From positions 1-63,196 of the forward strand of contig URIX01000005.1 of the NCBI GenBank assembly GCA_900547975.1: 63,196 bases of DNA. The letters run 5' to 3'. Below the pieces are notes generated by a model. That model was not told where the DNA came from. It was given only the letters and a program-made list of their open reading frames with translations, and ran no database searches. The stretch comes from an uncultured Eubacteriales bacterium. Lineage in GTDB: Bacteria > Bacillota > Clostridia > Christensenellales > CAG-917. This document shows positions 340 to 53,782 of this stretch, in pieces. Each line of letters begins with the position of its first letter. Position 1 is the stretch's first letter. Position numbers and translations under genes: made by a program.

Positions 340-1395
340 TCAAAACCCAAAGTTCCCTGGGGTGATAAACAAGCCGCTGATGAGACTCAATAGAGCGGCG
401 AGAAGAACGACGTGGACGACGTAGACAATGAGCGCGTGCTTGCCGAAGAAGCAGACCGCTTTTTCTATGCCTTTGGCAATCACGGTCGTGACTTTGCCTG
501 CGCCGAGCATAAAATTGAGGGTATTTATGGAAAAATCTCGCAGAGATTTCTTTTCGCTTTCGACGTTTGCGTAAAGTGCGTCGCAAGTCTTTTTGTAGAG
601 TGCTTTCGTAAGTTCGAAGCGAACGAGAGACAGCCGCTCATAGTAGAATAATTCGCCTATCAGCACGCCTGCGAAATAAAAGGCGGTGTAGGGTATGAGC
701 GTAAACAAATCGCCGGGTGAAAACTCGCTTTGCGAATAGAACGGCGACGGATTGCCCCAAAAGTCGTGCGGCGGAAATACGATTGCGAATATTTTGGGCG
801 TAGTCGCGGGCGGCGTATAGCAAAAATACAGACATAGCGTGACGATTATAAGCGCAATACTTGCGCCGACCATTGCCCATCTGTTGTCGCGCACCACGAA
901 CGATATGAGCGCATACAAGAGCATAGAAAAAGCGAGGAAATCGAGCACGCCGAACGCCACGAAAACGCCGTCGATGCCCATTTGATATTGCGCTATGTAC
1001 GAGCCGAGCGTGTAAATTAAAGCCACGACGAGCAGTTGCGCGCCGCGCTTTGCGTTGTTGCGCGAAAACGTGCAGGATATGCCCGAAATGGAAAAGAAAA
1101 CGAACAAAACTATCGGGTGAATTATATCTCTTACGCCGCTTGCGCATCCGCTCACCCAGTTGTAGCAAAAGGTCGTGAAAGCGTCGCCGACGCCTCTGCG
1201 AACAAAATCGCGTCCGTACCACTGCACTCCGAAATACGACCCGAGCAAAATTGCCAAATGGTCGAGAATCATAAGTAATACGCAAACACCTCGCAAAAAG
1301 TCGATTTCCCAAATGCGATTGCGTTTTCTTTTGGGAACGAGGGTGATTTGCACGTCGTCCGAGACGAGTGGATTTTTTTGTACGACCGATTGCAT
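340..1395 (-). CDS. Polytopic membrane protein, DUF1624 / heparan-alpha-glucosaminide N-acetyltransferase-like acyltransferase family
   Basis: 351-aa ORF. The N-terminal motif IWEIDFLRGVCVLLMILDH is typical of DUF1624-type acyltransferases. Multiple hydrophobic helices run through the rest of the protein. Confidence 0.65.
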   Translation of the reverse strand: MQSVVQKNPLVSDDVQITLVPKRKRNRIWEIDFLRGVCVLLMILDHLAILLGSYFGVQWYGRDFVRRGVGDAFTTFCYNWVSGCASGVRDIIHPIVLFVFFSISGISCTFSRNNAKRGAQLLVVALIYTLGSYIAQYQMGIDGVFVAFGVLDFLAFSMLLYALISFVVRDNRWAMVGASIALIIVTLCLYFCYTPPATTPKIFAIVFPPHDFWGNPSPFYSQSEFSPGDLFTLIPYTAFYFAGVLIGELFYYERLSLVRFELTKALYKKTCDALYANVESEKKSLRDFSINTLNFMLGAGKVTTVIAKGIEKAVCFFGKHALIVYVVHVVLLAALLSLISGLFITPGNFGF

Positions 1396-1806: not shown

Positions 1807-1835
1807 TTGACAAACGCGCGAAAAAAACGTATAAT
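1807..1835 (+). promoter_or_regulatory. Consensus sigma-A type promoter of the giant gene
   Basis: TTGACA (1807-1812), an exact 17-nt spacer, then TATAAT (1830-1835), about 65 nt upstream of the ATG at 1900. The leader contains a 7-bp hairpin CATATGC (1857-1863) / GCATATG (1879-1885) just before the SD GGAGGAG (1890-1896). Confidence 0.7.
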
Positions 1836-1899
1836 TGACCTGTATAATAATCTACACATATGCGCTACACGCGTAAAGGCATATGTTTCGGAGGAGATT

Positions 1900-1974
1900 A
1901 TGAGAATGAGAAAGTTATCGCTCGTATTGATGCTCGTGCTGATCAGCGTTATGCTGTTCGGCCTCGTGGCGTGC
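1900..1974 (+). other. Lipoprotein signal peptide and lipobox (L-V-A-C; Cys codon 1972-1974)
   Basis: Positively charged n-region (RMRK), an 18-residue hydrophobic core, then LVAC followed by NPKTGG. This matches the [LVI][ASTVI][GAS]C lipobox rule. Confidence 0.85.
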
Positions 1975-4900
1975 AATCCGAAAACCGGCGGGGACATCGA
2001 TGCTCCCGTCATTCCTACGCCGTCGCCGGACAATCCGGACATCGACAACGCCACGTATATCGGCGCGCAGGATTTCTGGAACGCTTTCAAGGCCGCCGCT
2101 CTTAACGAAGCGGGTGCGGAAAAAGACAAGCGTTACATAAGGGTTGACACGGCATTCGTGATGGGCTTTTCCAAAGATTCGTCCGATTCGCTTGTCGTTG
2201 CTCGCTTTGCAGGGAACATCGATACGCTCGATGATTCGAACAGCGAAATACTCGTTGAATTCCGCAAGTTGGCAACCGAAATAAACGGCAGAACCGTCGA
2301 TCAAGACACCATCTGTACGATGGCTAAAAACGGCGAAGGAACTCTGCTTTTCGGCGCGTATTATTACGAAGGCAAACTTGTTGCGGATATGCGCGGAATC
2401 AAGAAGGGCGACGGCGTTCACGTCGTTTACACCGACACGATCGACATGACAAAATTCGTGTCGAGATTCAAAGACGCACTCGAACAACTCGATCTTTCCT
2501 CTGTTTTGTACGACACTTTGATGGGCTATGACATCGGCGGACTCGTCAATAGCCTTATCAAAATCGATATCGCGCATTTGACGGTCGAGCAGTTGCTCGT
2601 CAACGTATTGTTCGGCGCAAGCAAGGGCACGTGCGTTGACTACGGCAACGGACATCAAGTGTTGCGTATGCCTTGCGACCTCGGACTTATCGTCAGCATA
2701 ATTCCGCTCGTTCAAGGTCTTATCCCCGAAAACATCATCGGACTCGTCAAGGACGTACTCGGTCTCGATTTGGGCAAACTCGGCGCGCTCGCCGGTATGG
2801 CTCTTTATGTGGAAGCCGACATTATGAACGGCGCGCTTCAAGGCACGACGTTCGACATCGACGTAAATCTCAACTCTTACGGCGTTGAGGGCGTCGAAGA
2901 AAAGTACGGCACGTTCCAGTCCGAATTCGGCATTAAACTCGGCTACGCGAAAGCAGACTTTGCGGGTGCCCCCGACCTCGACTTAGTCGGCAGTGAAGAA
3001 AAGCCGGGACTTCTCAAAAATCGCAACGAAAAGAACACCGCTCGTCAAGACGGTGAAAAATCCCTTTACGACGCCGTAAACGAAAGTGCGGAAAAATATT
3101 CTTTCCTCACTCTCGACGGCGCAATCACTCTCACTCTCAACTTCAACGAAAAGAAAGTGTCTATCGACAACGTGATAGGCTCTTTCGGCACTCTCATTTC
3201 AAATCTTCTCACAAAAAATCTCGACCCCGCAATGCTCGAAGCGCTCAAACCGTTGTTTGCAAAAGAAATAGATTTTGCCAGCGGCACGGTTAAACTCACA
3301 ATCAAACTTCAAGCAGACATCAACACCAGAGACGCAAAAAAGACAAGACTCGCAGCGGAAATTCTCGGCAGTAACGGCGCAAAACGCTTAACGGCTTACT
3401 ACACCGGCGAGAAAGAAGGAGTGTACATCGACGCAAGCGGCTTGCTCGGTTACAACGGAACGAAGTTCAAAATCGACGACATCAACGTCAATGAACTCTT
3501 GAACAGCCTTGTCGACAAAGTGTTTGAAACCATCAAAGGCGCAATCGACGGCCTCAAAGGCGGCGCAACCGCTCAAAACATTCAACAAGCGTTTGTAGAC
3601 AACGGCGAAATCGTCATTCAACACGGCGCGTATTCTGCGGCGGAAGGCGACGGCTCTGTCGACGTCTTGTCCCTCGTAAGTATGATTCTCGACCATATTA
3701 ACGTCAATATGGACGGAAATATCTTCAATATCAGGGACATAAGCGTAGATTTGTCGAGAGATATTCTCGACACAATCTTCTCGCTTGTGTTTACAGGCGA
3801 TAACGCAGGTGCGGACATCCCCATCACAGGCGCATTGCTCAAATACGTCAACAACGGCGCGCAACAAAACAAGAACCTCACTTTGAGTGCGGAACTCGGT
3901 GTTCGCGAATATAACGAAGCAAACACCGAATACAGCCTCGCGCCGCTCATCGGTCTTGCGCTCGGCGTTGACATTACCTTTGGTAAAATCAACAATTTGC
4001 CCGACTTCGAGGCAACGTTTGAAAAACTCGAGAGCGAACTTGACCAAAACGAAGGCGCATATCTTCCCATCCTCAAAAACGGCGCGTTGAACACGGATTT
4101 GCTTCACGTCAACGTGTCGACGGGGCTTACCCTCGACATCGAAACCCTCAAAGGCGAACTCGCAAAGATCGAAGTCAATATGCCCGAGAAAGAAATCGGC
4201 ACGATGTTCAAGGGTATTTTGCTCAAAGCGTTGATCGAACTCGGAAACATCGACGGCGGTCTTAAACTCGACATAAACGCCGACATCGACCTTACCGGCG
4301 GTCTCGATACGAGCGCGATCCTCGATTTGCTTTTGAAATCTTCCGCAAAGATTGCGATTTCAAAACAATCCGACAACGAAGAAGTGCTTGCGCTCTATTT
4401 GCAAGACGGTTGGGTGTATCTCAAAGCGGACCTTCTTTGCATAAGCGTTAAACAAATCAAACTTAATGTCAGAGAACTTATCGATATGCTCGGAAAGAGT
4501 TCGAACGATTCGTCGAGCAATCAGGCGCTCGTCGCAGATGAAAAAGAAGACGGCAAAGACGGAATGGACATCAATGCCGTTCTCGGCTTCGTGGCAGGTA
4601 TCATCGACGGATTCAAACTCGGCAATCACGCCCTCGAAGTCGTCCTTGTTTCCAACCTCTTTGAACAAGTCCTCGGACTTCTCAACATCGACGGCGTTAA
4701 GATTGAATTTGCAAGCACCGAATTCGACGGCGGAATCCGCATTGCTCTCAACGACGGACTCAATCTTCCCGAACTTCAACTCGGCGTGTTCGTGTCTTTG
4801 GGCAACAACGTCAACCTCGACTTGTCCATCAACGGTTTGTCCGCAGGTTTGAACGATAAAGCGAATGACTATTTGTTGAAAGACAATCGTCAAAGCGACG

Positions 4901-7900
4901 ATTTCACCGAAATTCTCGAATATCCCTTCCTCGGACTCGACCTCACGCTCGGTCTTAACGTCACGGCGGACCAAGGCGCGAGAGAACTCGTGTTCGGCGA
5001 AGGTAAGTACTGGCTCGATTCTAACGGACAGTACGTCGAAATCGAAAAAACGCCCGTTCCCGACGGATACACCGGCAAACTTTATTACAAGGATTCCGAC
5101 GGCATATATCAAGAAGAAAATATAACCAAAGCGACTCTCGCATTCGACGAACCGCTTAATCTCAACTACGAGTTGCGCATCGCGGGGCAACTCGACCTTT
5201 CGCCTATCGTCGAATACTTGCTCGGCGCGACCCAAATCAATACAAAGGGCAACGTCAGCGAGTTGATGATTGAACTTACGGGCAAAAAGACAAGCGACAT
5301 CGGCGGTCAAGCGACTGCCGAACGCAAAGTTTTGCTCGGACTTTATTACACGGGCGGTTCGCTCTATATCGACGCGAGCAACTTTGGTGTGGATAAGGTC
5401 AGAACGGACGTTGATCTCTATGAGATCATACTTGCATTGCTCGCAAAAGACTCGACCGTCGTTGTCAACGGCGCAAAGGGTACGGAAGCAATGACGGCGG
5501 AAGATAACGACCAAAACGACGCCGCTGCGAGAAAGGCGCTTGCGCTCGATATTATCGCAACGCTTTCTTCCGACAACGTTAAGTTGCAAATCGCAAAGGG
5601 CTTGACCGACATCCTTTATCAACTCATCGGAATCGACGCAAGCGACATCACTGCTTGGGCGCAAATCGCTTGGGCAAACGTAAAGGATAAATTCGACAAC
5701 AAACCCGTCCGTATCGCACTTGACGTCAACAACGACGCAGGTCAACAAATCGGCGGTGCGGAAATCTATATCGGCACGACCGTAAAAGGAGAAAACGGCG
5801 AAACTCTCAGCCCGCTCAAACTCGAAATCGGCGGCGACGCTGTCGAACCTATCAAAATTGTACGCGACGGACAAAAAATGCAAGAAATGGCGTCCTACGT
5901 CCAAAGCGAAGGCAACGTGTTCGGGGATATAGACTTGTTCAACGACTACGGCGACGTCACCATTCCCAGCATTTACGCCGAAATTCAAGGCACGTTCACG
6001 GTCGGCGCGCTTCAAGGCAACAAGTCTTGGACGGTCGGCGAATGGATTGCGACCTTCCTTGACGACAGCAATCCCGAACTCAATTCGTTCATAAGACAAC
6101 TTCTTCTCACCTACAAAGTGCCTGTCGAAGCGGGCGCAAACATCGGATTCCGCATTGCGCTCAACGCACATCTCAATCCCGACGTTCCCGTTGACCTCAC
6201 TCAAAACGTAGTGTTCAAGAAGTATGAAAATTCAAAACTCGCAGACCTCGCAAAATATGTCGAAGTCTACAAACTCAACGGCACGAAATACGTCCTTCTC
6301 ACCGACGAGGAACGCACGACGTTCGACGGCGACGTATACCTCAAACAATACGTTGCGGGCGGCATTGCGCTCGCCGAAGTGACAGACCTCAATTACAGAG
6401 GCGAAGGCTACGTCCTCGTTGACGGCAACTACGTCAAAATCAAAGTCACGGACGAAAATCAAGAACAATACGCAAACGACAAAATTTACACCGCGGCAAG
6501 TTTGCTCGACATCGCGTACATCGCGTCTCACAGCGACGTCGCAATCGAAATCTACAACGAGAAAATAACTCTTGTCGACAAGATGTCCAATGCGGAAAAA
6601 CTCGAACACGTTATCCTCGCGTTGCGTTTGCAAAGCACGGGTGAAAATGCGCAAGGTCAAGCGGTAAGCACGGTTTACCTCGATTTGAGCAACGACTTCC
6701 ACCTTGCTTTGACCAACATCGATCTCGGCGCATTGCTCGGCGGATTGATTAAGGGCGGCGACAAAGACGGGAAAAACGGCACGGCAACGGCGAGCGCGGA
6801 CGGCGGAATCGACCTTATGGGTATTCTCGGCAAGGTGCTCGGCGGTATCATCGGCTATATCGGCGTAGACACCGAAGGTTTGCAAATCAACTTTGCGGAA
6901 GCACTCGTCGCAACCCTCGTGCAAATGCTCGCAGGCAAGCAAGTAGACCCCGAAAAGTTCATCAAACTCAATTCGGACAGAAGTTATCTCGCATTTGCGT
7001 GGAAAAACGATTATAAACTCGAACTCAACCTTCAAATCGACCCCGTATACGTCGGATTCGAACTCAGTTCCGTCAAACTCGCACTCGGCAAAAAGGGCGG
7101 TGTTTTGCCCGAAGATTTCGACCCGAACGTATACACGACGGCTGAAAATCTCAGCACGCTTTCTCTCAATGTAGATCTCGGGCTCGACTTGCAACTCAAA
7201 GGACAAGACGAGCAAGTACGACTTGAAAAATACCTCGATTTGTTCATTGCGGATCTTGGTATAAAACTGGGAATCGATATGTTCGACGATATCGAATATA
7301 ATATCGGATTGAGCCTCGGCGCAAATCTTGCACTCAACGAGCCGAACGATAGCAATATTGTTCTTGAAGTTAAAAATAAAATAACAAATAAGAATATATT
7401 AGCGTTTTACGTCGAAGGTCAGAACATTTATTTGGACTTCGGAAGCCTTGGACGTCAACCCGTTTATCTCGAAGGAACAAACCTTTGCGACGAGATTTGC
7501 AAGTATGTTATCGGCTTGCTCGGCAACCTCGATTCAATCGTTAAAAACGGTGCGTCCGTCGCAGCGGACGAAGTCGTCGCAAACAGCGCGGACGAGCAAA
7601 TGCAACTCGTTCTCGACATCACGGACGGCAAACTCGGCGCACTCGTTATGCAAAACGTCCTCGTAGGACTTATTGCTGCACTCACGTCGAAAGACGGCAG
7701 TACGGATATTGCGAACATCATCGAAAAACTCGACCTCGACATTTCCGTCGGCGTTGACTTGCAACTCGACCCGTCTATCGCAATAGACGTTAACGTTGAC
7801 AGCAAACTCATCGCACTCGGCGTGAGCGTTGAAAACATCGACGTTGCAACCGGAACGAATAGCAACGCATATGCGGCAATCCGCGAAAAAGCGCAAAAGG

Positions 7901-22900: not shown

Positions 22901-25900
22901 ATTCTGCAGGCAATATGGCATATGCGGTCATCAATCCGATAAGCGGCGCACCGTCCGAAAACGGCTATCAAATCCTCGTCCAACCCACTCAAGAGGAAAT
23001 CGATAAAGGCGCGACGGCAAATCTCAACAAAGACGGCAACAAGTGTTTGTTGATGCCCGCATATATCGCAGGTCTTAAGACTGTCAAGGATAAAGACGGA
23101 AACGATGTTTATCAAACGGTCAAGATCAAGAACGAAGACGGCACGGAAGTCGAATACTACGTGCTTGACCGCAACAAATTGCCGAAGGGCAAACAATTCC
23201 CCGCAGGCACGATCGACTGGAATACGGACGACTTCAAGTACGATTGGCAAGGTTCGACAGAGTGGACGACGGGTGCGGGCAGCAACGTAGTCAAAGTCGG
23301 ATTCACCTATCAATGGGGTCTCGGCAAAGCGGTTACGGACACGATTTCGTTGACTGCGAAGAACTACAAGATTTCAAGACTCACGTCAATGTCCAACAAC
23401 GAGAGCGGCACGGTAACGCAAAACTTCAAGAGCGAGCGCGACAGTAATGGCAACTACACGACGATTCTCGAACTCAAAGCGATGGATATCGACGCAAGTA
23501 TGCAAAACCTCGTGACCTACCTCGGCGGATTCCGCTTAGTCAACGGCAAGTTCATCAACGAAAGTTCGATGACGGGCTTCGACGTCGAGTGGGATACGAC
23601 GGAACTCGCAAAAGCGCTTAACGCAATCACCACCAAAGATTCGAGCGGCAACGACGTCGTAAACTATTACAAGGGTCTTGACGTAACGGTAAAAGCAAAG
23701 GTCGGCGGCAAGAGATTCAGCATCTTCACGTCGGTCACGAAGAATCTCGTTTCGACGGACAAGAGCGGCTTTGTGGGCAAGAGCGAGAGTTTCGCAGGCA
23801 AGTTCGCGCAAGAAGTCAATGTCAGAATCGTAGTCAAACCGTATGTGTTCGCTTCTATGGCAAACGCGCTCGTATTCGATCAGTATCGTTATGAAACGAT
23901 AACCGCAGCCTCGTTCGGCAACTCATTCCGAATCAACGTCAAAGACGCAAGCGGAAACACGCGAGTCGAAAACTTGACGGTCGGCAACGGACTCAGCGTC
24001 GAAGCGCCGTTCATCAAAGCGGGCGAAACCTATCTCAACGCATACAATAATGCGGTGCACAAACTCACGTCCGACGAAATCACATACGAGGGATACAGCA
24101 ATCAAAGAGCATATCCGCTCTATGCGAAACTCGTCATCGGCACTGAATACAGCGGCAAGCAAGAGGTTTACGTTCCCATCGAAGTGAACGCGGTCAAACC
24201 CTCTGCGGTGACGATAAGCGTCGAACACGGCAACACTCTCAATCCGAAGTGGTACGAGAGATACGACGAGTTCAACGTTTCCGTCGGCAAGAACACGTAC
24301 ACGATGTTCCCCGACTGGACGACGGTGCAGTATTACACCAACGCCGCTTGCACGAAACTCAAATCGCAACAAAACATCTTTGACGGCGGTACGATTTACG
24401 CGCAAGTAGAAGCGTACGCAACTGCGGACGGCACGAAAGACGGCACGAAACTCGCTCTTGTCAACACAGGCAAGAAGGACGAGAGTGGCAAGCCTGTCTA
24501 TTCGGCGCAAAAGATAACGCTCAGACTCAACGTCGAGCAACAAACCATACAATCCGTAAACTTCTTCTACGACGAAACGATTGGCGACGTCGCGGCATAT
24601 TTGAGAAAATATGCAAGCGACGAAGCGAAACTCGCCGAACTCGAAGCAAAACTTGCGGACATCGACAACTACACCGGTAGCGTATATCAACAAACGCACG
24701 AAAAGGACGGCACTTGGTACGGCATTGACCCGATCAACTTTGCAACCAACCCGAGCGATTACTTCAAGACGAGTGATTGGGGCGACGCAAAGGGTGGCAC
24801 GCCTGTCAAGGTCAACTTGGTCAACGGAGAATCCTACATTGCATTCGTCAGAGCGTTTGACACTGTCGTTTCGGGCAAAGACGTCAAAGGCACGGGCAAT
24901 ACGCAAACCTGCTATATGACGATAGGCAACAACAAAGTTTCCTTCTACGTCAACATTCCGAGTTATGAATTTGTCGGCGGCGCAATGAGCGACGCGGAAA
25001 GCAAACTCACGTATGTAGACGGCAAAGTCGCAGGCACGAAAGACGATGCGAAAGACGATACGTTGAAACTCGCATACAACGTGTTCGACAAATGGAAGTT
25101 GCCGAGCACGGCGACCGTACAAACCGCACAAGGCGTCGGCGACACAACCGTTGACGTCAAGTGGGTTGATTACGCCGCGCCGAACAAGGACGAAGTGAAG
25201 TCCGACGCAGACGGCAAGTTGTACGTCGAGCGTAAGTACTTCTTCTTCGACGGACTCACGATGCGTTATCCGAGTGCGGACGCGTTCACGGCAAAGATTT
25301 ATCTTGAAAACTTCAACACGGAAGTGAAAGAAATCGTTCCCGACGGAATGAGCCTCAAATACGACGTATTCGACAAGTTCGAGTTCGCTCGCACCGCAAC
25401 CGTCTATATGAATGACGGAACGAAGCACGAAAACGTGCCTATCCGCTGGGAAAGCACGTCAATGCCGACTGCGGATGAAATCGAACAAGGCAGTTTCACT
25501 CGCAAGATTCGCATTCTCGGCGCATACGTCGAGGGTCAGGACATCTACAGCGACTACGTCGTGACCGTCAACAATGACTTCAAGATTGACACGCTCTTGA
25601 ACGAATTCAAGACGGAAATCACCGGCGACTACAAGGCAGGCAACTTTGCAATCGACGTTGCAAAAGACAACTTCTATCAAGGCTTGCCCAAGAGCGCAAA
25701 CGTCAAGGTCGGCACAAAGACGATCCCCGTCACGCTTGCGTGGAGCGACAACTACACCGCAGAGAGCGGCTTCAACGGCAATATGACTCTCACGATAACT
25801 TCCAAGGACGGCGACAACGTCGTGCTCGAAAGTGACGTGAACGTCGCCGTAAAAGTCGAATCCGCAGGTATCACGGGTCTTGCGAAGGGACAAAAGTACG

Positions 25901-28900
25901 ATCTCGACCCGTATGCGATGAGCAGCACGCTCTTTGAATCGGGCAGTTTGCAAGAAGTCAAAGTCAGCGGCAGCGACAACACGCAATACGTTGCGGTCGA
26001 ATACGACTTCGACAATCAAGCGTTCTATGACAACGTTGCTTCCCGCTTCGGCAAGAAGTACAAAGTGGCGGTGACGTACAAGTACAACGCAGGCAAGAAC
26101 GACAACGTCGAAACGGGCGAAATCGAAGTGTACGTCGTGGGCAGAAGCATTATGTTTATGTCCGACTACGCCGACCGCTCGATTGTGGTGGATACGTTCC
26201 TTAACAAAGACGCTTCCTATCTTGCCAACAAGATGAGAATCACGACGACGGGCGGCGACGTGTTCGACGCGTACTTCGACTGGTCCGACGTTGACAAACT
26301 CATCAAGAGCGGAAAGAGCAACACGGCATATATGGCAACCGCGATCGTGGGCGTCGAGAAAGCAAACGGCGGCTACGTACTTGCCGATATCACCGACGAC
26401 GACAAGGTCAACCCGACTTACGTCGCAATCGAAGACTACGTCGAGTACAAGCAAAAGACCAACCCGAACTTCGCTCTTACGAACGAAAAGAGATATATGC
26501 TCGCAAAACAACGCGTCAACATACCTGTTACGGTGCTTGACCGTACGATTGCGGACGCAGAACTCTTGCTCGGCAACACCGACCTCGAATATTTGTATTC
26601 CGATTCGAGCAAGTATTCCACCATCACCGACACGCTCGTCGGCAAGACGAACGGCGCGTATGACGGCAGATACATCGACATCGTGTACAACAAAGCGACC
26701 GGTATGCCCGAACAATACGTTTACAACAATCACTTTGCATACGTCGGCGCAAGCAAACTGCCCGACACGATGCAACTCACGTTTGTAAACGGCGACGTCG
26801 GCAAATACTACATCACTTACGAAAACGCACCTACGGCAAGTGACCTTGCAGGTCTCACGACAACTCTCGACAGAAAGATGACCGTTCACGTATATGATAT
26901 GGAAACCAAAAAGATCGAGGTTATGGACGCGTTTGAAATGTCGATCAAGATTCGCGTGTCCAAGGTTACGCTCACAAACAGCGACCTTGCGTACAACGAT
27001 ATGTCGGTCGGCTCGTACAAGTACAACAAAGACGTATATGCAGACAGAGCGAACACCGTCTACGACACGAGCAAGTATGCTTCAACCGCAACGTTCTACG
27101 TCGGCGCACAGTTTATGCTTGCGCAAACGTGGTGGACTGACGGCAGATCCGCAAACGGCAGCAAGTACGACTACAACAGCACGTACACCAAACGTCACGG
27201 ATTCACCGACACCGACGGCGAAGTATATCCCGGCATTTACAGTGTGTACTCGGTCGGCAGCAAGTTCAAAGCGGAAGGTGAGGAAGGCAACTACGAAGGC
27301 GTCAAGTTCTATATCTACAACGCTGACACCAAGAATTATGCTTTGTATAACGGCACCGTAAAATACGATTCCGCAAACACGACCTACAAGAGCGAGAGCG
27401 GTCAAGACCTCTACATCCTCGTTTACGTGACGACGCAAACCCTCAACGCAAGTTGGAATGCTGACGGCGTAAACTACACGTACAGAGGCGGCAACGTTGC
27501 AGTCGAGGCAACTCTCACAAGCCGCGTTAAAGGCAACGGCGCAACGGCAAAGGTAGACGTCACGGTACACGTCAACAACAGCAGAGTAAACGGCGAAGCA
27601 ACGCTTGTAAGCGGCGACACTTGCAGCTTGTTGTCAGGCGGCAAATTCGTAATCGACCCGTACGAAAACGGCAACGTCTTTGCAAGAAAGACGGGTTACA
27701 GCGGCGACCGTTACGAGAAATCCTCCGCTGCAACTTCCGGTTACGTCAAGAACAACCTCGACGGCACGTACAAACTCGTTGACGGACAATACGTCGAATT
27801 GACTGAGGAAGAACTCAACAGAGATTACGCAAACTTCCCGACAAGGCTCACCGTCACGCTTGCAAACGGCACTAATGTCGATGTGCCCGTAACGTGGGAC
27901 TTCAGCGGCGTTAACGTGACGTATGCGGGCGGCGAATACTACGCATATGCAATCGTCAACTACGACGGCGCGTACAACTACAAGGCAACGGATTCGTCAT
28001 CTGCAAACGAAGTCGGCACGCAACGTATCAGATTCAACGTCAAAGTGCTTGACAGAAGAATACGCGCGGGCAAAGACGGTATCGCAAACGAAACCGAACT
28101 CAAGAAACTCGCAGGTTACGCATACGGCGTTTCGAGCGGCGTTGCGGCTTTCGTCAATCCGTACGAGTATATCAAGCCCACAATGCCCACCGAACTCTCT
28201 CTCAACGAGCGTCAAGCGGACGGCAATTACAAGGCAATGACGTACTCGACGAGAAGCAACGAGAGGAAACTCGTATGGTCGTTCGACGAGTTCAGACCTT
28301 CCTACAACGGCGGCGTGATTTACGTCACTGCAAAACTGATCGGCATCGACGGAAACGTCCAAACCTACAAGATTCCGTTTCTCGTCCAGAAGATGGAAGC
28401 AACGGCAATCAAAGAGGCTCAAACCACGGTTGGCTCGAACGGCGTGACCAAACTTGCGCCGAAGTCGGGCGGTTACAGTTCAACTATCAATTCGGGCGTT
28501 GCCACCGAGTCGTTCAGCATCGATCCCAACGATCCGAACAGATTGTCCATGCCGTTCATGTACATCGCGACGTTCAAGGTTTCTACGCCCAATTACGATG
28601 CGGCAAACGACAAAGTCACAGGATTCACCGTTGTTACGGAACCGAAGGACCTCGATTTCTTCTACGCAATCGTTTCTATGCCTGCGGACGAGCAATACAC
28701 CGTCACGTCAAGCGGAATCACGACGAGCGCAAGCGGCAACACCGCAACGATTCAACTCGGCGACCAAGAGCGTATCTCGGTGAAGGTCGTTCAAACCAAC
28801 GCGAACCTTGCCCCGACGATAGAGAGCGCAAGCGGATTGCACAGCGGCACGACGCTTCAAACGACGACGACCGTAAACGGCAGCAGAGTCAACGTAGTTT

Positions 28901-29199
28901 GGTTCGGCACGGCGGAAGTTTATTCCGCGTCCGACAACTCGTTGGTTGCAAGTTACGCGGTTATGTTCTCGTCGGCAGGCACGAGCCTCACGCTTCCCAC
29001 GTCCGCAGACCGCAAGATAGTCTACAAACTCTATGCGGCGGTAGGTACGGTTGTGGACAGCAACGGCACGGTCGTTACCACCGAAAAGGCAACGCAAGAC
29101 TTTGCAAACTCGCACAGCGCAGTTGAAGTCGGACAAACCATACCTGTTGCCCAAGCAATCAGCAACCTTGAAAAGATAGAGTGGAATCCGAGAGGATAA
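1900..29199 (+). CDS. Giant (~9,099 aa) N-terminally lipid-anchored surface protein: cryptic large-module array plus C-terminal Ig-like array; no recognised family for most of its length
   Basis: A single open frame runs 1624-29199 (9,191 codons). The first ATGs behind the strong SD GGAGGAG are at 1900 and 1906. The N-terminus MRMRKLSLVLMLVLISVMLFGLVA-C is a lipobox signal peptide. The stop is TAA at 29197-29199, followed by a terminator. Codon usage matches the neighbouring genes. Confidence 0.93.
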   Translation: MRMRKLSLVLMLVLISVMLFGLVACNPKTGGDIDAPVIPTPSPDNPDIDNATYIGAQDFWNAFKAAALNEAGAEKDKRYIRVDTAFVMGFSKDSSDSLVVARFAGNIDTLDDSNSEILVEFRKLATEINGRTVDQDTICTMAKNGEGTLLFGAYYYEGKLVADMRGIKKGDGVHVVYTDTIDMTKFVSRFKDALEQLDLSSVLYDTLMGYDIGGLVNSLIKIDIAHLTVEQLLVNVLFGASKGTCVDYGNGHQVLRMPCDLGLIVSIIPLVQGLIPENIIGLVKDVLGLDLGKLGALAGMALYVEADIMNGALQGTTFDIDVNLNSYGVEGVEEKYGTFQSEFGIKLGYAKADFAGAPDLDLVGSEEKPGLLKNRNEKNTARQDGEKSLYDAVNESAEKYSFLTLDGAITLTLNFNEKKVSIDNVIGSFGTLISNLLTKNLDPAMLEALKPLFAKEIDFASGTVKLTIKLQADINTRDAKKTRLAAEILGSNGAKRLTAYYTGEKEGVYIDASGLLGYNGTKFKIDDINVNELLNSLVDKVFETIKGAIDGLKGGATAQNIQQAFVDNGEIVIQHGAYSAAEGDGSVDVLSLVSMILDHINVNMDGNIFNIRDISVDLSRDILDTIFSLVFTGDNAGADIPITGALLKYVNNGAQQNKNLTLSAELGVREYNEANTEYSLAPLIGLALGVDITFGKINNLPDFEATFEKLESELDQNEGAYLPILKNGALNTDLLHVNVSTGLTLDIETLKGELAKIEVNMPEKEIGTMFKGILLKALIELGNIDGGLKLDINADIDLTGGLDTSAILDLLLKSSAKIAISKQSDNEEVLALYLQDGWVYLKADLLCISVKQIKLNVRELIDMLGKSSNDSSSNQALVADEKEDGKDGMDINAVLGFVAGIIDGFKLGNHALEVVLVSNLFEQVLGLLNIDGVKIEFASTEFDGGIRIALNDGLNLPELQLGVFVSLGNNVNLDLSINGLSAGLNDKANDYLLKDNRQSDDFTEILEYPFLGLDLTLGLNVTADQGARELVFGEGKYWLDSNGQYVEIEKTPVPDGYTGKLYYKDSDGIYQEENITKATLAFDEPLNLNYELRIAGQLDLSPIVEYLLGATQINTKGNVSELMIELTGKKTSDIGGQATAERKVLLGLYYTGGSLYIDASNFGVDKVRTDVDLYEIILALLAKDSTVVVNGAKGTEAMTAEDNDQNDAAARKALALDIIATLSSDNVKLQIAKGLTDILYQLIGIDASDITAWAQIAWANVKDKFDNKPVRIALDVNNDAGQQIGGAEIYIGTTVKGENGETLSPLKLEIGGDAVEPIKIVRDGQKMQEMASYVQSEGNVFGDIDLFNDYGDVTIPSIYAEIQGTFTVGALQGNKSWTVGEWIATFLDDSNPELNSFIRQLLLTYKVPVEAGANIGFRIALNAHLNPDVPVDLTQNVVFKKYENSKLADLAKYVEVYKLNGTKYVLLTDEERTTFDGDVYLKQYVAGGIALAEVTDLNYRGEGYVLVDGNYVKIKVTDENQEQYANDKIYTAASLLDIAYIASHSDVAIEIYNEKITLVDKMSNAEKLEHVILALRLQSTGENAQGQAVSTVYLDLSNDFHLALTNIDLGALLGGLIKGGDKDGKNGTATASADGGIDLMGILGKVLGGIIGYIGVDTEGLQINFAEALVATLVQMLAGKQVDPEKFIKLNSDRSYLAFAWKNDYKLELNLQIDPVYVGFELSSVKLALGKKGGVLPEDFDPNVYTTAENLSTLSLNVDLGLDLQLKGQDEQVRLEKYLDLFIADLGIKLGIDMFDDIEYNIGLSLGANLALNEPNDSNIVLEVKNKITNKNILAFYVEGQNIYLDFGSLGRQPVYLEGTNLCDEICKYVIGLLGNLDSIVKNGASVAADEVVANSADEQMQLVLDITDGKLGALVMQNVLVGLIAALTSKDGSTDIANIIEKLDLDISVGVDLQLDPSIAIDVNVDSKLIALGVSVENIDVATGTNSNAYAAIREKAQKGIRGDDKFVLLTNDEKATYEGKRYNKDGDKFVEAENGDYRGYYTEMSNAHIIEVDLSLIVDYYASATYTLVTDQRALETQSPLDRYSYSKNEQRFVQDPNGTYVREGFAFDKLLDFVLNMDGLQSILATMLPQIRINTDNEEVRFDVLKDKFSVGDLLKRLGLNLVLSDKMDDGFKLDIKARLNLQKIGMEDMSKIDWKNLNLDIDTILKGLEAYVGIDFDYEHEGTNAKIGIYLEDGIVFVDMDGIGGPRVQVGLIDLLEKLGIALGTSSSNSEASTAADTTDGSDATDSDKTNDKVSVGQILNMIVSKIVLAGKPWIIGGNTNRIDQLGVFVRANFINDLFSMLLKTAINSENTVVDESQSGLFIYPQTDKFAYCGVDEALALQLKLALANKKDPIDRETGELSSKSQYLIDLNLGLDAKVGLVSVDTNYQPLLDNDEKLEFISLDDYIENIVKLSGGFLGENYQRETSLKDNAIYYAFDKDDNGEYLLKTGMYRKPNFTVDANGTYVLGEDGEYRLINDGETLPEGTKRYAKEDLTGVQMYSRSYATVKTGEDGKQYAYTVKYDVDPDGVYVYDAENDVYVNKNDASAPESNTFYSRVDNPITVTEKDADGKETTRHALASEVKLYNKCGKTAYQDQNVSLSVSGLIYFNSASAEVVNAGGLLPNAFRDMIINLQTMAAFNAGVGLRVSANIDLAALDLQGLASGGTFGDFINNSDLSKVELAIEFLEVDDKGYFVKYDTANGTDNGNEKVLGGMYLSGGTFYLDLTGMVSTAENYSKIENFVDFAKKVIEKFNKKDDKENGAQTASDEAETRSSQRDAVLLLAYSDAQFQIQITKALIAFVLKMFMPDLGSLEEVFDVFNISLGVDIGQPVYKSVKELAATDPDLYAKFQNEYKGDRYRKYETEDLSQKADTDTYYVAGNAYYLASTTKVYEVTVDGENVTPVDGERLRFADGNLEAGKTYAVLENGVYVVIANKVQGKYVHPNANYYAKVEGNTDPVSLRSYRMYRRTDGVESVTDTYIEGDTYIRYNGEERQIEELRSRLFGYVKDENGDYYRTIDLYNKISDYYIGLDAAIGCVNMGLKLGGIELGFGAGEELLPAYIRDGKAHSCFDNGKEIEYTDETKNSYTFEDIPTNMFYDTIITVGFSVELELGVTEGKLDFGKILSSIIGDLTGVVVEMPSTAKGYSSAHFRLDVSLMVDIYDLTKSELKIELINMTETGYESLWLGAYYVNNTIYVNLKDAFNIQKFAIGGLNIAEILKDYIIDFDSDDEYFVAGGSQTASTSEAFVASGAQSSAVDLSDKELALSILINRDLLTLKLGDKLFDTILEYIPEDLLGFDIKDLFYQEVNGGLQVEINTSDSINLSVDVALGLDGDRYNADSEYVKLTDETAKAEQNESLANKVNGSANYYVFKQSDTGHYVKSGNSVRAITSKEENDVKAGDRYAKYKVQTDEGVNVPYLVEVLDNGKGDGSEVLSKTHLPMLAVGEESIVIYKHVAGAVANKSYVGDGGKYDMTLELGLAIKNLDVAFTNSRTYVLSGDELAEYTNMDDVDRFTLSETIDITTQFKSGTGNDIDLSAVLQAFFPSLTAEQLLVIKAQADDGGDVNRSLQLVLDVDIQVAALLNFMRTELVKYTDDDDQFDGDMDLFKVIELLKKVFEKLKKNTDSLTKLIADIASYVNLSVRLQTKGGNDSEYHDMLGIYMVGGTFELLSEEEKTNVTSEHYVDPSERFDHYFETKNGSYYLDETTGEYNYITSDAFAGTRYSYDSSYCYKNEKGNYKRVNGGLFVDLSYFNIPSLRVDANEIRKLVSGIIAQSSTEAMAAADDTPDDGEKEKISFPLVKDDKILGYIRTFAYGLQITSRYIKVLANADYINSILSLVMGENAIQFDDSKFVNKPNVTLYTDNTRYSYENAQDVINEFKTKVTGLDKSSDEYKKYAKELESTLTKSKYLFDIVSYTGEGNENKGIYYKDSDGAYVQKSELSTVERKAYDEQVKVGKASYYDVKKVNVYIKLAEKVYVLYADATQTQLNKCEKVAELQNNYLVRVPKLYYYASENAEEPVAVNFRYSVVKPLQARNEFLSVNLYLWNHKLSVAINAPSVGVTKFQYITGQEAIDDNYRLVKADEVLEEGTKRYNRNDDGTYTEAENGKYVAQEKPKYAIKSVAAGARYINTDEDIYTSVDKESDGLSNWEFDYYTGGKFDVQKYSDAENYAGPRYYEYKGELIAITKDSLFVKNGNQYVQAALDKTAETPTTSWALFPDFIAEIENNGAEYYVENTAKTAYVRVQRTFIYKKYTYNTEKKVLLPATDDCAPKDYFIKVQQNSSVEKPDFSKPEYAKYAYKEYVDSDNLYYISLALRGSLFIQAGKIYFDYATYKGVYNSVVNKITDENLYQEVPNSVLEKIAYKKFQGDYVRVTDTTEIAQLKNKGLYVLVNGELDEKYSGANEVLGDVLGNLLGAMTGKFQIAEDMTFNIYFSLRLNLGFKLYILPSFSIDIRDLDVAIDVWGEQNDLLDDGTGKNYVTSKDRDENNYKVKLLDGTKPHILGIYYDNDKDTGKAGLYIDAEALLGKEAKLFVDMSEYSLEEVITGLVAGIGKGSSAQDASVASDDVTNLNPDKQSADTTSLFVNIFTNALALNVTSGFAKVLIKELMPDNASIADMLPNLKVYLKQNLRPYDITIGAILFNEKGDVPVFNLGLNIQGLNGVDGESSSIEFGRKEDILKTQQGSNAIFYYANFYRDNGNTDYSNYYGKNYNAKDYVKLKRDEATGYDYIENADGSKGALYTGTDADGKTFAGPEDRYMKAAPVMSEVLASRQMAFKGDLYTDVDGVYMLVYKRLNDIAGNNNLDEDTYREYRNLVNTNQFATYTGTLYVVDSNGNFVKTDKDTLKGFTGEGNLQYALASNYTSATVSEKSKAVVYNGQTYYPIDTNGNGYTDMSEADTFARNYPSAKVYKQVTDFTNYTKALALNLGDLLGGGTFDVASVLAGLESVELGMSLDIKATLDDVINWTYQFTRFIDDPQISQYLYFIATSLQANKEFQSLIGLSVDLKAYLKLANLVKMIAGDKSVGILQALEGAKIYLELTYETNFHGNQKPQAFLWVEIRGGKLYLNLDMSEIGDIVGWGDFFSYGVVDGLDLSSILGSSSTTASAQAFTAADDEEANTGLIPANIWSVLNVVLGRLLIANDFITVGLNETLIADLIGMLADSDSAVLQGISEFLPKLHTTDTKDTSGITINFYGNSPSIDINLGFKVGTLYYETVNNFNAMYGNDGKYFKGSNWSGTTFKQETSGEYTVGNGADNDNTYVLVSTDDYALVTYAYPAWDGDTYDYDATANKFTKHTESGTKGAYLKQGDFAIAISLGKLYAKVNKDFSVDKDEKFADRNDDKTIKYVYVESANGEYVKNADGTYRLATAADIEEAHYAKQASYGNYVKLQNATAHLEMSIEISLYGSGKAAGKANEIDLSEILDMIMGLINPGSAISGSQLKLNIVNEFGNDQGAFLTLDLVANIDVETYKVELGLELNKKTASMTTAKTLLGVYLIENAVYVDLSGILGETAKIAVTDLNLDGLLEGVLGKFLGQEESTDASGASVASKEDIGTIEKNKDHLREYAYFMINVTPQKLLLQLNADLVNAIYKKIMAIRGLEQKDLIPDIGDLLVRVDASESGAKKYVKMTDEEKAKHNGKTYKKVGVRYVEVTDGTKGDYKQDGNKTTISLNLRFSDGLYFCLDIPAGSITKDISQSVASVFGLSVAEKDFYKSISDKELSSYDGTRYAKKSDGTYETASDYVDGVTYYAPMVKRIDDKELSTYSGDKFVKNANGNNVLSSLAISEATYYAQSTTYTKLVLKDGKLYDGATEFQGAVYVKRYGAYELSAGANYVATTNYYKQDVTYVALTARDGMLYNGTELFKGDKVYVAKTETAENGETTTSYELSTRYTFYPYYALKKEQVPRDYIEILSLDLESLVNGTGTFDISSLNLPTIGLKASLNFTMTSKNLKPGQTGYDESLAGWTKNLLANLLSGQAIFGQFGTLTWQDENTLTDGGKVYDGKVYVKNAKDEYVLYTEKTYAKGTKYFKYTLAPINITMANEINLTIDIAANINLAPILAYGIGGILYSDIAVDIMLGKPVGTKLLSLYYLGSSRLMKKDGVNWELGMATSGAYTSNEIYSDALYVDASGLGLGKIKFQGIAGLLGVTPSYGAKTASGASVSADATTSDANTVGANAAASNALYLQIDIQNGRLGVSFNNAFITTLIGMLGLDLGDIELPPIKSVKLDVNLGAKGLDSINLNALLDSVGTSANVKIDNVELGFGESMVESANLIEQVKTGYTGLTFSKTSGIMNLIQNAIDSLKPGLSINIQNKVWQLTQARKVATLYQDSSITLTGKKILTSTKIDGSSSSPEKYNIHLDLASNRTSIGLKAILGGNNIFITDLSLPSGLVGNIAGLVSALKCLDLGSMMGKSPLLALVNGTDGDDATYEYPSAKTAAETSTTAASGWNKDKTSYTYPLNLENLIKSVEVNLFNDNGYWPYFDKATAVSNGAGKISVKVKLNKDSYNELIIMVTSILMGLMKDKINSDNGEPYFGDVQKARDGKTSITGKGLSSYLIDGIGDTNEITKFYDGLDALVKRGATTQEKVNYVEPFARSLPVTLTKWALLFALDAANISLGYGTIQNLASEVIEGLNFLIGGILPIPFASGEIDPSVNIYVDLNPTASEYGCTGDQVVKPGIQAIEIMVNAEKNGTGTAMKYNKAQTTTKSEMNRMANEGGAVAAGSADSTTNELSNAWDFFMLRITPYSIVDTSAQKFNTGMLYFDDAESAEKVTNEVAAPTEIVIDDPATRSGNAVKSDGSSVPVTLRDSAFLDATVFPQYANVKFPVYLSGKQMQSYDSSGDYKDAVGTQIVWDAATVDLTAATSEDTNGRRLAGYVYGYALNVVLYAIPVYVTNDKEAQTQSIKGYYNINGKYTEKALGIDIDTNSSKYMAELPDLVRIPFRTGGKYTFATYLKDSAGNMAYAVINPISGAPSENGYQILVQPTQEEIDKGATANLNKDGNKCLLMPAYIAGLKTVKDKDGNDVYQTVKIKNEDGTEVEYYVLDRNKLPKGKQFPAGTIDWNTDDFKYDWQGSTEWTTGAGSNVVKVGFTYQWGLGKAVTDTISLTAKNYKISRLTSMSNNESGTVTQNFKSERDSNGNYTTILELKAMDIDASMQNLVTYLGGFRLVNGKFINESSMTGFDVEWDTTELAKALNAITTKDSSGNDVVNYYKGLDVTVKAKVGGKRFSIFTSVTKNLVSTDKSGFVGKSESFAGKFAQEVNVRIVVKPYVFASMANALVFDQYRYETITAASFGNSFRINVKDASGNTRVENLTVGNGLSVEAPFIKAGETYLNAYNNAVHKLTSDEITYEGYSNQRAYPLYAKLVIGTEYSGKQEVYVPIEVNAVKPSAVTISVEHGNTLNPKWYERYDEFNVSVGKNTYTMFPDWTTVQYYTNAACTKLKSQQNIFDGGTIYAQVEAYATADGTKDGTKLALVNTGKKDESGKPVYSAQKITLRLNVEQQTIQSVNFFYDETIGDVAAYLRKYASDEAKLAELEAKLADIDNYTGSVYQQTHEKDGTWYGIDPINFATNPSDYFKTSDWGDAKGGTPVKVNLVNGESYIAFVRAFDTVVSGKDVKGTGNTQTCYMTIGNNKVSFYVNIPSYEFVGGAMSDAESKLTYVDGKVAGTKDDAKDDTLKLAYNVFDKWKLPSTATVQTAQGVGDTTVDVKWVDYAAPNKDEVKSDADGKLYVERKYFFFDGLTMRYPSADAFTAKIYLENFNTEVKEIVPDGMSLKYDVFDKFEFARTATVYMNDGTKHENVPIRWESTSMPTADEIEQGSFTRKIRILGAYVEGQDIYSDYVVTVNNDFKIDTLLNEFKTEITGDYKAGNFAIDVAKDNFYQGLPKSANVKVGTKTIPVTLAWSDNYTAESGFNGNMTLTITSKDGDNVVLESDVNVAVKVESAGITGLAKGQKYDLDPYAMSSTLFESGSLQEVKVSGSDNTQYVAVEYDFDNQAFYDNVASRFGKKYKVAVTYKYNAGKNDNVETGEIEVYVVGRSIMFMSDYADRSIVVDTFLNKDASYLANKMRITTTGGDVFDAYFDWSDVDKLIKSGKSNTAYMATAIVGVEKANGGYVLADITDDDKVNPTYVAIEDYVEYKQKTNPNFALTNEKRYMLAKQRVNIPVTVLDRTIADAELLLGNTDLEYLYSDSSKYSTITDTLVGKTNGAYDGRYIDIVYNKATGMPEQYVYNNHFAYVGASKLPDTMQLTFVNGDVGKYYITYENAPTASDLAGLTTTLDRKMTVHVYDMETKKIEVMDAFEMSIKIRVSKVTLTNSDLAYNDMSVGSYKYNKDVYADRANTVYDTSKYASTATFYVGAQFMLAQTWWTDGRSANGSKYDYNSTYTKRHGFTDTDGEVYPGIYSVYSVGSKFKAEGEEGNYEGVKFYIYNADTKNYALYNGTVKYDSANTTYKSESGQDLYILVYVTTQTLNASWNADGVNYTYRGGNVAVEATLTSRVKGNGATAKVDVTVHVNNSRVNGEATLVSGDTCSLLSGGKFVIDPYENGNVFARKTGYSGDRYEKSSAATSGYVKNNLDGTYKLVDGQYVELTEEELNRDYANFPTRLTVTLANGTNVDVPVTWDFSGVNVTYAGGEYYAYAIVNYDGAYNYKATDSSSANEVGTQRIRFNVKVLDRRIRAGKDGIANETELKKLAGYAYGVSSGVAAFVNPYEYIKPTMPTELSLNERQADGNYKAMTYSTRSNERKLVWSFDEFRPSYNGGVIYVTAKLIGIDGNVQTYKIPFLVQKMEATAIKEAQTTVGSNGVTKLAPKSGGYSSTINSGVATESFSIDPNDPNRLSMPFMYIATFKVSTPNYDAANDKVTGFTVVTEPKDLDFFYAIVSMPADEQYTVTSSGITTSASGNTATIQLGDQERISVKVVQTNANLAPTIESASGLHSGTTLQTTTTVNGSRVNVVWFGTAEVYSASDNSLVASYAVMFSSAGTSLTLPTSADRKIVYKLYAAVGTVVDSNGTVVTTEKATQDFANSHSAVEVGQTIPVAQAISNLEKIEWNPRG
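2341..20680 (+). repeat. Protein-level array of ~14 highly degenerate large modules inside the giant CDS
   Basis: A recurrent Tyr-rich motif (LG-x-YY-x-GG-x-hYhDhS-x-hG) lies at 2341, 3385, 4381, 5326, 6661 (weak), 7390, 8581, 10153, 11575, 12991/13246 (split), 15520, 17182, 18490 and 20281. Twelve of these (from 4381 onward) are followed within ~110-190 nt by a clear acidic S/T/A/D/G linker and a hydrophobic L/I/V-rich motif; the first two (2341, 3385) lack a clear-cut linker. Coordinates are in the findings. Confidence 0.6.
22491..29196 (+). other. C-terminal array of Ig-like beta-sandwich modules (Big_4-like signature)
   Basis: Repeated pattern (L/F)P-x-x-h-x-V-x-h-x-x-G-x-x-x-x-V-x-V-x-W. 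Examples: LPSTATVQTAQGVGDTTVDVKW (25099-25197), FARTATVYMNDGTKHENVPIRW (25381-25467), LPKSANVKVGTKTIPVTLAW (25684-25755), FPTRLTVTLANGTNVDVPVTWD (27832-27940). Confidence 0.55.
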
Positions 29200-29237
29200 C
29201 GCCTTATCGAAACCGCATTAATGCAAAACGATACGCA

Positions 29238-29270
29238 AAAGCCTCGCATTCAGCGAGGCTTTTCGTTTCT
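29238..29270 (+). terminator. Rho-independent terminator of the giant gene
   Basis: AAAGCCTCGC (29238-29247), loop ATTCA, GCGAGGCTTT (29253-29262), then a T-rich tail TCGTTTCTT. It starts 39 nt after the stop codon. Confidence 0.8.
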
Positions 29271-29449
29271 TGCAAAGGGTTTTTTGAAAAATTCGAATGC
29301 GGCATATAGGCATAATAATAAGGCGTATCGTCATAATCGAGCGGTAATAAAATAAACGAAAAACGAGCAGAAAATCAACAAAATATGCCGATTTTTTGTC
29401 AAGTTCGGTTTGCGTTTTGCAAACATAGCGGCGCAAGTACAAATTTTTA

Positions 29450-53766: not shown

Positions 53767-53782
53767 TGACTGAATTGCGTTG

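Follow-up and report, generated by a model that had tools for sequence, protein, structure and literature searches.

A giant gene for a probable lipid-anchored surface fiber in an uncultured gut Christensenellales bacterium

Expression and export signals of a 27.3-kb gene

The stretch of DNA analyzed here, hereafter the window, comprises 63,196 nucleotides (nt) of contig URIX01000005.1 from an uncultured Christensenellales bacterium of the human gut, and carries a 27.3-kb gene that encodes a protein of 9,099 amino acids (aa) with a predicted lipoprotein signal. A single open reading frame (ORF) runs on the + strand from 1624 to 29199 and would give 9,191 aa if read from its first ATG. The true start is nevertheless ATG 1900 rather than 1624, since all relatives open with a lipobox signal of the MRMRK/MRKxK type and the predicted promoter falls inside 1624-1899. 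Translation from ATG 1900 meets one stop, at its end, and the coding sequence (1900..29199, + strand, TAA included) is supported by its uninterrupted frame, by orthologues that are collinear from end to end and by a ratio of nonsynonymous to synonymous substitution rates (dN/dS) of 0.18-0.22. A Shine-Dalgarno sequence (GGAGGAG, 1890..1896, + strand) lies 3 nt 5' of ATG 1900 and 9 nt 5' of ATG 1906, and a predicted sigma-70-type promoter, TTGACA-17-TATAAT (1807..1835, + strand), agrees with the consensus at 12 of 12 positions and ranks first among the five promoter-like sites found in 1400-2100. Beyond the stop codon, an intrinsic-terminator-like element (29237..29270, + strand) consists of a hairpin with an 11-bp stem (29237-29263, six G-C pairs) and the T-rich tail CGTTTCTTGC. 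Because the gene has its own promoter and terminator, the next gene downstream has a promoter-like site of its own (29450-29477 in a consensus scan) and the upstream gene is divergent, the giant gene looks like a monocistronic unit. A preliminary description, made by a model from the letters of this DNA, had already reported the open frame, the Shine-Dalgarno sequence with its two ATGs, the perfect promoter, a terminator (given as 29238-29270) and a self-contained gene; the ORF listing, the raw sequence and the promoter scan agree with it on these points.

The divergent intergenic region in front of the gene (1396-1899, 504 bp) shows a marked strand asymmetry (39% A, 20% T) and contains eight copies of CGAAAA on the + strand, compared with 0.7 expected from the window-wide density. 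These copies could form a regulatory array or a DNA-bending tract. The enrichment is local, and GCGAAAA was ruled out as a motif enriched throughout the window.

The protein opens with a predicted lipoprotein signal peptide (1900..1974, + strand), MRMRKLSLVLMLVLISVMLFGLVA-C, in which a basic n-region (MRMRK) and a hydrophobic core (LSLVLMLVLISVMLFG) are followed by the lipobox L-V-A-C, an instance of the pattern [LVI][ASTVI][GAS]-C, with the codon of Cys25 at 1972-1974. The lipobox is kept in all relatives whose N terminus is present, as (L/M/F/A)(V/A/I)AC or VGCG. It is followed by a Pro/Asp-rich putative tether, aa 26-55 (1975..2064, + strand; NPKTGGDIDAPVIPTPSPDNPDIDNATY), which is flagged as a small/acidic low-complexity stretch. 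The signal peptide is the sole transmembrane (TM)-like segment of the protein. As for other routes to the surface, neither a hydrophobic segment beyond the signal peptide nor an LP.[TSA]G sequence of the kind used by sortase occurs anywhere in the 9,099 aa, LPXTG, RTX and YSIRK motifs are likewise missing throughout, and the features of RTX proteins and type 1 secretion are absent, with zero GG.G.D motifs and no match to Pfam HemolysinCabind. The protein is rich in L/G/D/A/V/T/K/N/S/Y, contains 21 Cys residues and has 1,256 D+E against 855 K+R, with a net charge of about -400. Such strong acidity and scarcity of Cys appear in keeping with what exported proteins of anaerobes tend to show. From these features we infer that the giant protein is lipidated and surface-exposed, and the preliminary picture of an exported, lipid-anchored, acidic protein with some 20 Cys residues and with neither a C-terminal TM segment nor an LPXTG motif holds in each respect. 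The window itself offers a parallel in its Opp-type ABC transporter operon (51592-59794), whose substrate-binding protein (724 aa, starting at 51592) has a lipobox, VFAAC-NP, of nearly the same style. The two ATPase ORFs of this operon overlap as listed (56415-58178 and 57881-59794), and the second probably starts later than listed.

Conservation of the gene in gut and rumen Clostridia

To find relatives, one genome per GTDB species was scanned with a degenerate pattern for loci encoding the N-terminal 1,200 aa. Thirty-two species-representative loci carry this region, with identities from 93% down to 30%, and all belong to metagenome-assembled genomes (MAGs) from gut or rumen that are labelled Christensenella sp., Clostridia, or Firmicutes CAG:238/CAG:475, although a few of the bins bear clearly wrong names; CAG-475 is assigned to Christensenellales by GTDB (PMC8863827). 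Of these 32 loci, 28 have a frame that continues without interruption from the lipobox up to where the available DNA ends, over at least 3,298 aa and mostly over ~4,400-4,800 aa. A C-terminal profile matched 35 human-gut metagenome contigs, and at least 28 of these show no interruption over the last 3,235 aa or more, up to a stop whose relative position at the end of the match is the same; the same genes follow downstream. Other samples yielded three contigs with 98.2% nt identity to the window across the gene and its flanks, a comparison covering the last 9.8 kb, and these contigs are thus the same species.

At the protein level, a HMMER scan of 1.84 billion representative proteins returned only 72 matches, among them ten full-length members of 6,529-7,924 aa, so that the 9,099-aa protein of the window is the longest family member seen. 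Seven of the ten are collinear with it over most of its length at 25-31% identity, whereas the three most distant ones (P0035, P0036 and P0047) are matched by BLASTP only over ~900-1,300 aa. Another of the representative matches, P0062, is not related: it is a Laminin_G_3 protein whose similarity is limited to the short YY-hairpin motif. Pfam searches with the most distant representative matches gave no family for the giant protein, no relatives were found among IMG/VR viral contigs, the sole family member with a source name is titled 'hypothetical protein', and literature searches found no described giant Christensenellales lipoprotein of this family. The phyletic survey that the preliminary description had called for thus leads to a family confined to gut and rumen Clostridia.

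The gene is thus genuine and conserved, and dN/dS values of 0.18-0.22 against four relatives, computed for the first 4,500 codons, show that it evolves under purifying selection. It nonetheless diverges faster than its surroundings, with 88.9% nt identity to locus L034 compared with 94.5% for the housekeeping neighbors. That a frame of this length might instead be an artefact or a dead gene (an assembly chimera, a collapsed repeat or a pseudogene staying open by chance) would be suggested by two sets of broken frames. One is found in L011 (CP091723.1, 663113-686647), a 1.65-Mb chromosome that is alone among the relatives in being both complete and assembled from long reads, where the first 13.5 kb of the giant gene contain three frameshifts; the other comprises three of the 35 metagenome contigs (L035, L040 and L060; coverage is only 2.4x for one of these), in which the frame is broken 994-1,805 aa ahead of the stop. 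However, L011 is 96-99% identical to an intact short-read locus, L009, so its frameshifts are probably indel errors of long (nanopore) reads, and gene calls there will be fragmented. The L011 locus also shows that no assembly collapse is involved. A chance open frame is excluded by the openness and collinearity of the gene in dozens of independent assemblies together with a dN/dS of ~0.2. In addition, the three independent samples of the same species, the ten full-length relatives of 6.5-7.9 kaa and the lack of near-identical repeats that could collapse all speak against an artefact, which can be regarded as effectively refuted.

Diverged modules, flexible linkers and a variable distal region

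The protein was searched against Pfam and NCBIfam as ten 910-aa tiles, and no family was detected except for one Big_4 match (see below) and a sub-threshold Big_3_4. Likewise, neither half of the protein matched any PDB sequence, and Pfam found no family at E<=0.01 in 36 orthologous 840-aa segments. These searches bear out the earlier statement that nearly the whole length lacks a recognizable family, and the high-coverage match to a characterized family that would have spoken against it did not appear in Pfam, NCBIfam or PDB. Self-BLAST is nearly blind to internal repetition, with 13 weak internal pairs only and no near-identical repeats, but profile methods reveal an array of ~14-15 very diverged alpha/beta modules with a ~300-aa core, which occupies aa ~56-6465 (2065..21294, + strand), ~6,400 residues or ~70% of the protein. 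A hidden Markov model (HMM) iterated from the seed '...vLlGlYY.gG.LYiDas..g...v..d...l..ll' recurs every ~320-980 aa up to aa ~6,180, and HMM copies of its 'YY.G.LY.D' hairpin lie at aa ~150, 500, 830, 1150, 1835, 2235, 2750, 3230, 3790, 4560, 5540 and 6170. In hhalign comparisons of family profiles, module 585-870 aligns with module 886-1195 (probability 97.3%, E 2e-11, 238 columns) and module 400-560 with the C-terminal half of module 886-1195 (E 5e-9), and module HMMs match further copies in the array. Since these alignments between modules are significant, the region can be read as diverged copies of one module, in agreement with the earlier view that the internal repeats are highly diverged and form no trivial tandem array. 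The module cores show 25-47% identity in a full-length alignment with seven relatives. Among the 36 orthologous segments, the invariant residues are Gly, Tyr, Asp, Leu, Ile, Ser, Thr and Pro, a set that looks structural rather than catalytic; correspondingly, the preliminary finding of no catalytic or nucleotide-binding motif is matched by the lack of any such family in these searches.

Three modules, aa 395-1235 (3082..5604, + strand), were modelled with AlphaFold2 from 41 family sequences (model m579f45f2aeb3; mean pLDDT 76.2, pTM 0.56), with 591 of 841 residues at a pLDDT of at least 70 and low confidence essentially limited to the linkers; a run on aa 1-1200 with a 5-sequence alignment reached a pLDDT of 36.7 and was unusable. 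In the model, each module begins with a helix, a beta-hairpin, a helix, 3-5 long antiparallel strands (10-17 residues) and a further helix, and continues with a meander of four strands, to which the YY-G-Y-D hairpin belongs, a strand, a helix and the linker. A Foldseek search of the three-module model against 350,542 PDB chains and BFVD returned nothing at E<=1e-3, and the module profile had 0 matches at E<=10 among PDB sequences. Of the tiled structure prediction suggested earlier, the one tile that was modelled has no significant structural match. The module has no detectable relative in Pfam, NCBIfam, PDB or BFVD, and the chance that it represents a new fold is fair. Together with the hhalign results, the model also modifies the preliminary image of a beta-rich fiber or sheet: the N-terminal 70% is not simply beta-rich, and its mixed alpha/beta modules separated by disordered linkers resemble a string of beads rather than a stiff sheet.

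The shape of the modelled module bears on a different role for the array. The modules could be open curved beta-sheets with helices (calycin, LolB, AttH or hot-dog-like) that hold hydrophobic molecules, and the chain would then serve to store or scavenge lipids and other hydrophobic ligands, or to move them along the envelope or into a partner cell. In line with this possibility, the best PDB matches in Foldseek, none of them significant (BFA1, OspA, LolB, AttH, Fsa2, hot-dog dehydratases/thioesterases and outer-membrane barrels), are all curved antiparallel sheets, with a top probability of 0.44, and every module combines amphipathic strands of 10-17 residues with Gly-rich hydrophobic helices. 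However, none of these matches reaches E<=1e-3, their TM-scores are 0.04-0.24, and they amount to generic curved sheets. No AsmA, TamB, SMP or LolA-type family occurs in the protein or in the 36 orthologous segments. Moreover, the disordered linkers of the model would break up the modules and leave no continuous groove, and the host, a member of a Bacillota order that is presumably monoderm, would have no second membrane to bridge. A ligand-holding chain is therefore rather improbable. It is a looser form of the repeating beta-groove or envelope-spanning scaffold that the preliminary description had offered as an alternative, and that stricter idea finds no support: AsmA, AsmA_2, DUF490/TamB, DUF748 and DUF3971 are absent at E<=1 in the ten tiles and at E<=0.05 in the 36 segments, and TamB, VPS13 and ATG2 are absent among the 50 best Foldseek matches. 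The lipobox anchor, the interrupting linkers and the Bacillota host likewise speak against it.

Each module copy ends in a small-residue acidic linker (aa 1189, 1619, 2263, 2799, 3270, 3812, 4597, 5137, 5578 and 6192). Within the linkers recurs a motif of approximate form [S/G/T][E/Q]A-hydrophobic-[T/S/A]A.[D/E/G], e.g., TEAMTAED or SEAVTAAD, found in the window's protein at aa ~1195, 2278, 3820, 5149, 5585 and 6200 (nt ~5480, 8730, 13360, 17340, 18650 and 20500). This motif could mark a processing or modification site, in which case the chain would be a polyprotein or precursor that is cut, glycosylated or cross-linked at ~12 places to give module-sized units or a decorated fiber. Its frequency favors such a role: when the 11 full-length proteins (the window's own and its ten relatives) were tested, six contained 3-8 copies each, compared with ~0.01 expected from shuffles, and always in linkers, which are otherwise poorly conserved and predicted to be disordered in the AlphaFold2 model. 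Additionally, four of the five relatives without the strict motif (P0034, P0035, P0036 and P0047) carry 'SALAS.(E/D)' or 'EA.GT.D' by eye. On the other hand, the motif is loose, its strict form is missing from five of the ten full-length relatives, P0016 among them, and it may just reflect a preferred composition of flexible acidic linkers or a transient strand. As the conserved neighborhood also holds no protease or glycosyltransferase partner, we give little credence to a precursor, about as little as to a ligand-holding chain.

The modules are also interrupted by Tyr-rich stretches, which are modelled as short beta-hairpins (model residues 643-679). Gaps and variability in the full-length alignment with the seven relatives fall in these inserts and in aa 7,301-8,100, which account for the extra 1,200-2,500 aa of the window's protein. 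An insertion of 200-300 aa, made up of ~45-aa repeats with the pattern 'NG.YWFD.AT..YVAK...NY..SGK.Y', is found in module 4 (window aa ~930) of L007, L013, L014 and P0002; by eye it resembles choline- or cell-wall-binding hairpins, and no Pfam model matches it. Three identities considered for the Tyr-rich inserts were rejected: CW_binding_1 has no match in the window tiles, in P0002 or in L014 (with its 'G.YWFD.AT..YV' insert), RHS_repeat of the Rhs/YD-repeat type has none at E<=1 in the ten tiles, and no MORN model matches.

The array is followed by a conserved junction that is not repeated, aa ~6466-6799 (21295..22296, + strand, edges approximate), which has no Pfam or NCBIfam match and aligns to the distant full-length relatives at 25-34% identity with few gaps. 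The remaining ~2,300 aa, aa ~6800-9099 (22297..29196, + strand), form a beta-rich, Ig-like region in which Big_4-type motifs ('P..v.V.l.dG....v.V.W') can be recognized by eye in several segments. One of these, aa 8641-8686 (27820..27957, + strand), matches Big_4 (PF07532; E 3e-5, 23.9 bits, compared with a gathering score of 22.1), the sole curated-family match in the whole protein, and two orthologous fragments (P0075 and P0077) match Big_4 at the same place. Iterated HMMs seeded on the region gave no clean domain count, and its profile had no match among PDB sequences. The Ig-like distal part proposed in the preliminary description is thus supported by one domain match in a region that is beta-rich and variable. 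Variation is seen across the family, in that aa 7301-8100 are gapped in most relatives, and also between strains: at aa ~8,588 (27662..27679, + strand), the same-species contigs L041 and L043 have 168 extra nt, which keep the frame and add 56 residues in the form of a Tyr-rich hairpin cassette. Changes in length are thus limited to the Tyr-rich inserts and to the Ig-like region, as one would expect for an exposed surface protein that faces a ligand, or phage and the immune system.

The gene lies among ordinary chromosomal neighbors. Upstream, on the opposite strand, a divergent gene encodes a membrane acyltransferase (340..1395, - strand; Pfam HGSNAT_cat / Acyl_transf_3), which precedes its giant neighbor in 30 of 32 related loci, with aa identities that range from 97% to 47%. 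In L015, a second Acyl_transf_3 gene lies just upstream, and further locus companions are a well-conserved 647-aa protein without a Pfam match and a bPH_2 protein; the regions cited for this set of genes in the related loci are L015:7180-8271 and L026:8687-9661. Downstream follow an SPFH/Band-7 protein with multiple C-terminal zinc ribbons and a second zinc-ribbon protein (29410-31718), a pair that is kept in nearly all human-gut metagenome loci of sufficient length (86-100% and 66-100% aa identity), then MetRS, TatD, a radical-SAM protein and KsgA, and further away a P-type ATPase and the Opp transporter. None of the genes adjacent to the giant gene encodes a sortase, a dedicated secretion system, a protease or a glycosyltransferase. 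The acyltransferase belongs to a class whose usual role is the modification of envelope glycans, and its conserved presence would suit a protein acting as envelope scaffold or coat, whose many acidic, flexible copies would form a brush or matrix, as a substitute for an S-layer or capsule, serving without a specific ligand as spacer, cation buffer or barrier to phage and host factors. The net charge of about -400 with regularly spaced acidic disordered linkers, a promoter and ribosome binding site very close to consensus and the lack of a recognized adhesin tip domain would also agree with such a coat. However, adjacency to the acyltransferase is weak evidence of a functional link, because synteny extends over the wider neighborhood, to either side of the gene, in the clade as a whole. 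Additionally, no self-assembly or SLH-type domain was found in the protein, and its most variable parts, which are the hairpin cassettes and the Ig-like distal region, fit target recognition better than a bulk coat, which we consider unlikely.

A candidate surface fiber compared with known giant proteins

Taken together, these observations lead us to propose, with moderate confidence, that the gene encodes a giant lipid-anchored fiber on the cell surface of this bacterium, probably an adhesin. The protein would be exported by the Sec pathway and lipidated at Cys25 by the Lgt/Lsp pathway, as its signal suggests, and the Pro-rich tether would keep the chain attached to the external side of the cytoplasmic membrane. 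About 14 alpha/beta modules, with their flexible acidic linkers and Tyr-rich hairpin inserts, could then form a stalk through and beyond the wall, whose length is probably >100 nm if a rough 4-6 nm is allowed for each module and ~4 nm for each Ig-like domain. The Ig-like region and the hairpin cassettes may constitute the variable part that contacts ligands, with mucus of the host, dietary glycans or partner cells as likely candidates. An exposed, target-facing protein fits the variable Ig-like distal region, the gain and loss of cassettes and the faster divergence of the gene relative to its neighbors. In agreement with a fiber, the family is limited to gut and rumen Clostridia MAGs, at least one of which has a small, 1.65-Mb genome. 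Several points weigh against this proposal. The module fold matches nothing, so that a non-adhesive role is possible (hydrophobic-ligand binding, a matrix or coat, or processing into subunits), a single domain passes a curated Ig-like threshold, and does so marginally, and no wall-anchoring or wall-binding domain was detected, which makes the crossing of the wall by a lipid-anchored chain an assumption. Lastly, although sequencing errors probably explain the broken frames described above, pseudogenes could exist in some strains.

Among gut taxa, Christensenellales stand out for their frequent links to host genetics and leanness, yet most of their lineages (CAG-475 and relatives) are uncultured. 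A gene of this size would take up ~1.7% of the 1.65-Mb L011 chromosome, and the gene is conserved under purifying selection across gut lineages of humans, mice and ruminants, and, given such conservation and size, it is likely central to how the cells meet their surroundings. The array of ~6,400 residues offers a target for structure determination, possibly of a new fold, while the family could be used to raise antibodies or probes that visualize and enrich these bacteria and to test adhesion to mucus, fiber or partner microbes. It also illustrates that very diverged repeats can hide large families from routine annotation. A bolder and only tentative extension, for which the odds are clearly lower than for the fiber itself, combines a new module fold, a new class of giant lipid-anchored envelope proteins peculiar to gut Christensenellales, regulated processing or modification at the conserved linker motifs and physical partnering mediated by the fiber (with methanogens, other microbes or mucus). 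If true, it would help to explain the life of small-genome, health-associated and largely uncultured bacteria.

With AsmA-like bridge proteins (TamB, YhdP and VPS13) the giant protein shares a very great length, an N-terminal membrane anchor and repeating amphipathic antiparallel strands with loops or helices. In contrast to these, its anchor is a lipobox rather than a TM helix, disordered acidic linkers separate its helix-rich modules and its relatives are found only in Clostridia/Christensenellales MAGs. Its likeness to Big_4 proteins lies in the segment that passes the gathering score and in the neighboring segments that show the pattern by eye, whereas the match is single and marginal and the rest of the C-terminal region is without a curated or PDB match. 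Tandem-Ig adhesins (of the Bap, SasG, MpIBP or Mobiluncus type), which consist for the most part of tens of recognizable Ig-like repeats, differ from this protein, in which one Big_4 and one sub-threshold Big_3_4 were found in 9,099 aa.

Further parallels are found among giant surface proteins. Staphylococcus aureus Ebh is a giant surface adhesin of a Gram-positive bacterium, and an adhesin of Mobiluncus mulieris with Ig-like repeats reaches 7,651 aa (PMC10619420). Like these, the protein described here is by far the largest of its genome, exported, acidic and Cys-poor, and it is elongated and multi-domain, with Ig-like domains and a presumed role in far-projecting attachment. It differs from them in its N-terminal lipobox anchor, with no LPXTG/sortase signal or C-terminal TM segment, in the 70% of its length made up by a module without a Pfam, NCBIfam or PDB relative, and in repeats that are barely visible to BLAST, whereas the known giants have tens of recognizable Ig-like or helical repeats. 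Surveys of giant proteins in uncultured bacteria ('Giant genes are rare...', bioRxiv 10.1101/2023.11.21.568195; 'The neglected giants', PMC11573180) describe metagenome-derived proteins of >5,000 aa that are mostly unannotated and presumed to act at the surface, as is the case here. Their hosts are Omnitrophota or Planctomycetota rather than human-gut Christensenellales, and the text of PMC11573180 makes no mention of Christensenell*, Clostridia or lipoprotein. Giant surface proteins are thus already known as a kind, and what sets the present one apart is its N-terminal lipid anchor, its restriction to gut Clostridia of the Christensenellales type and its relative-less module.

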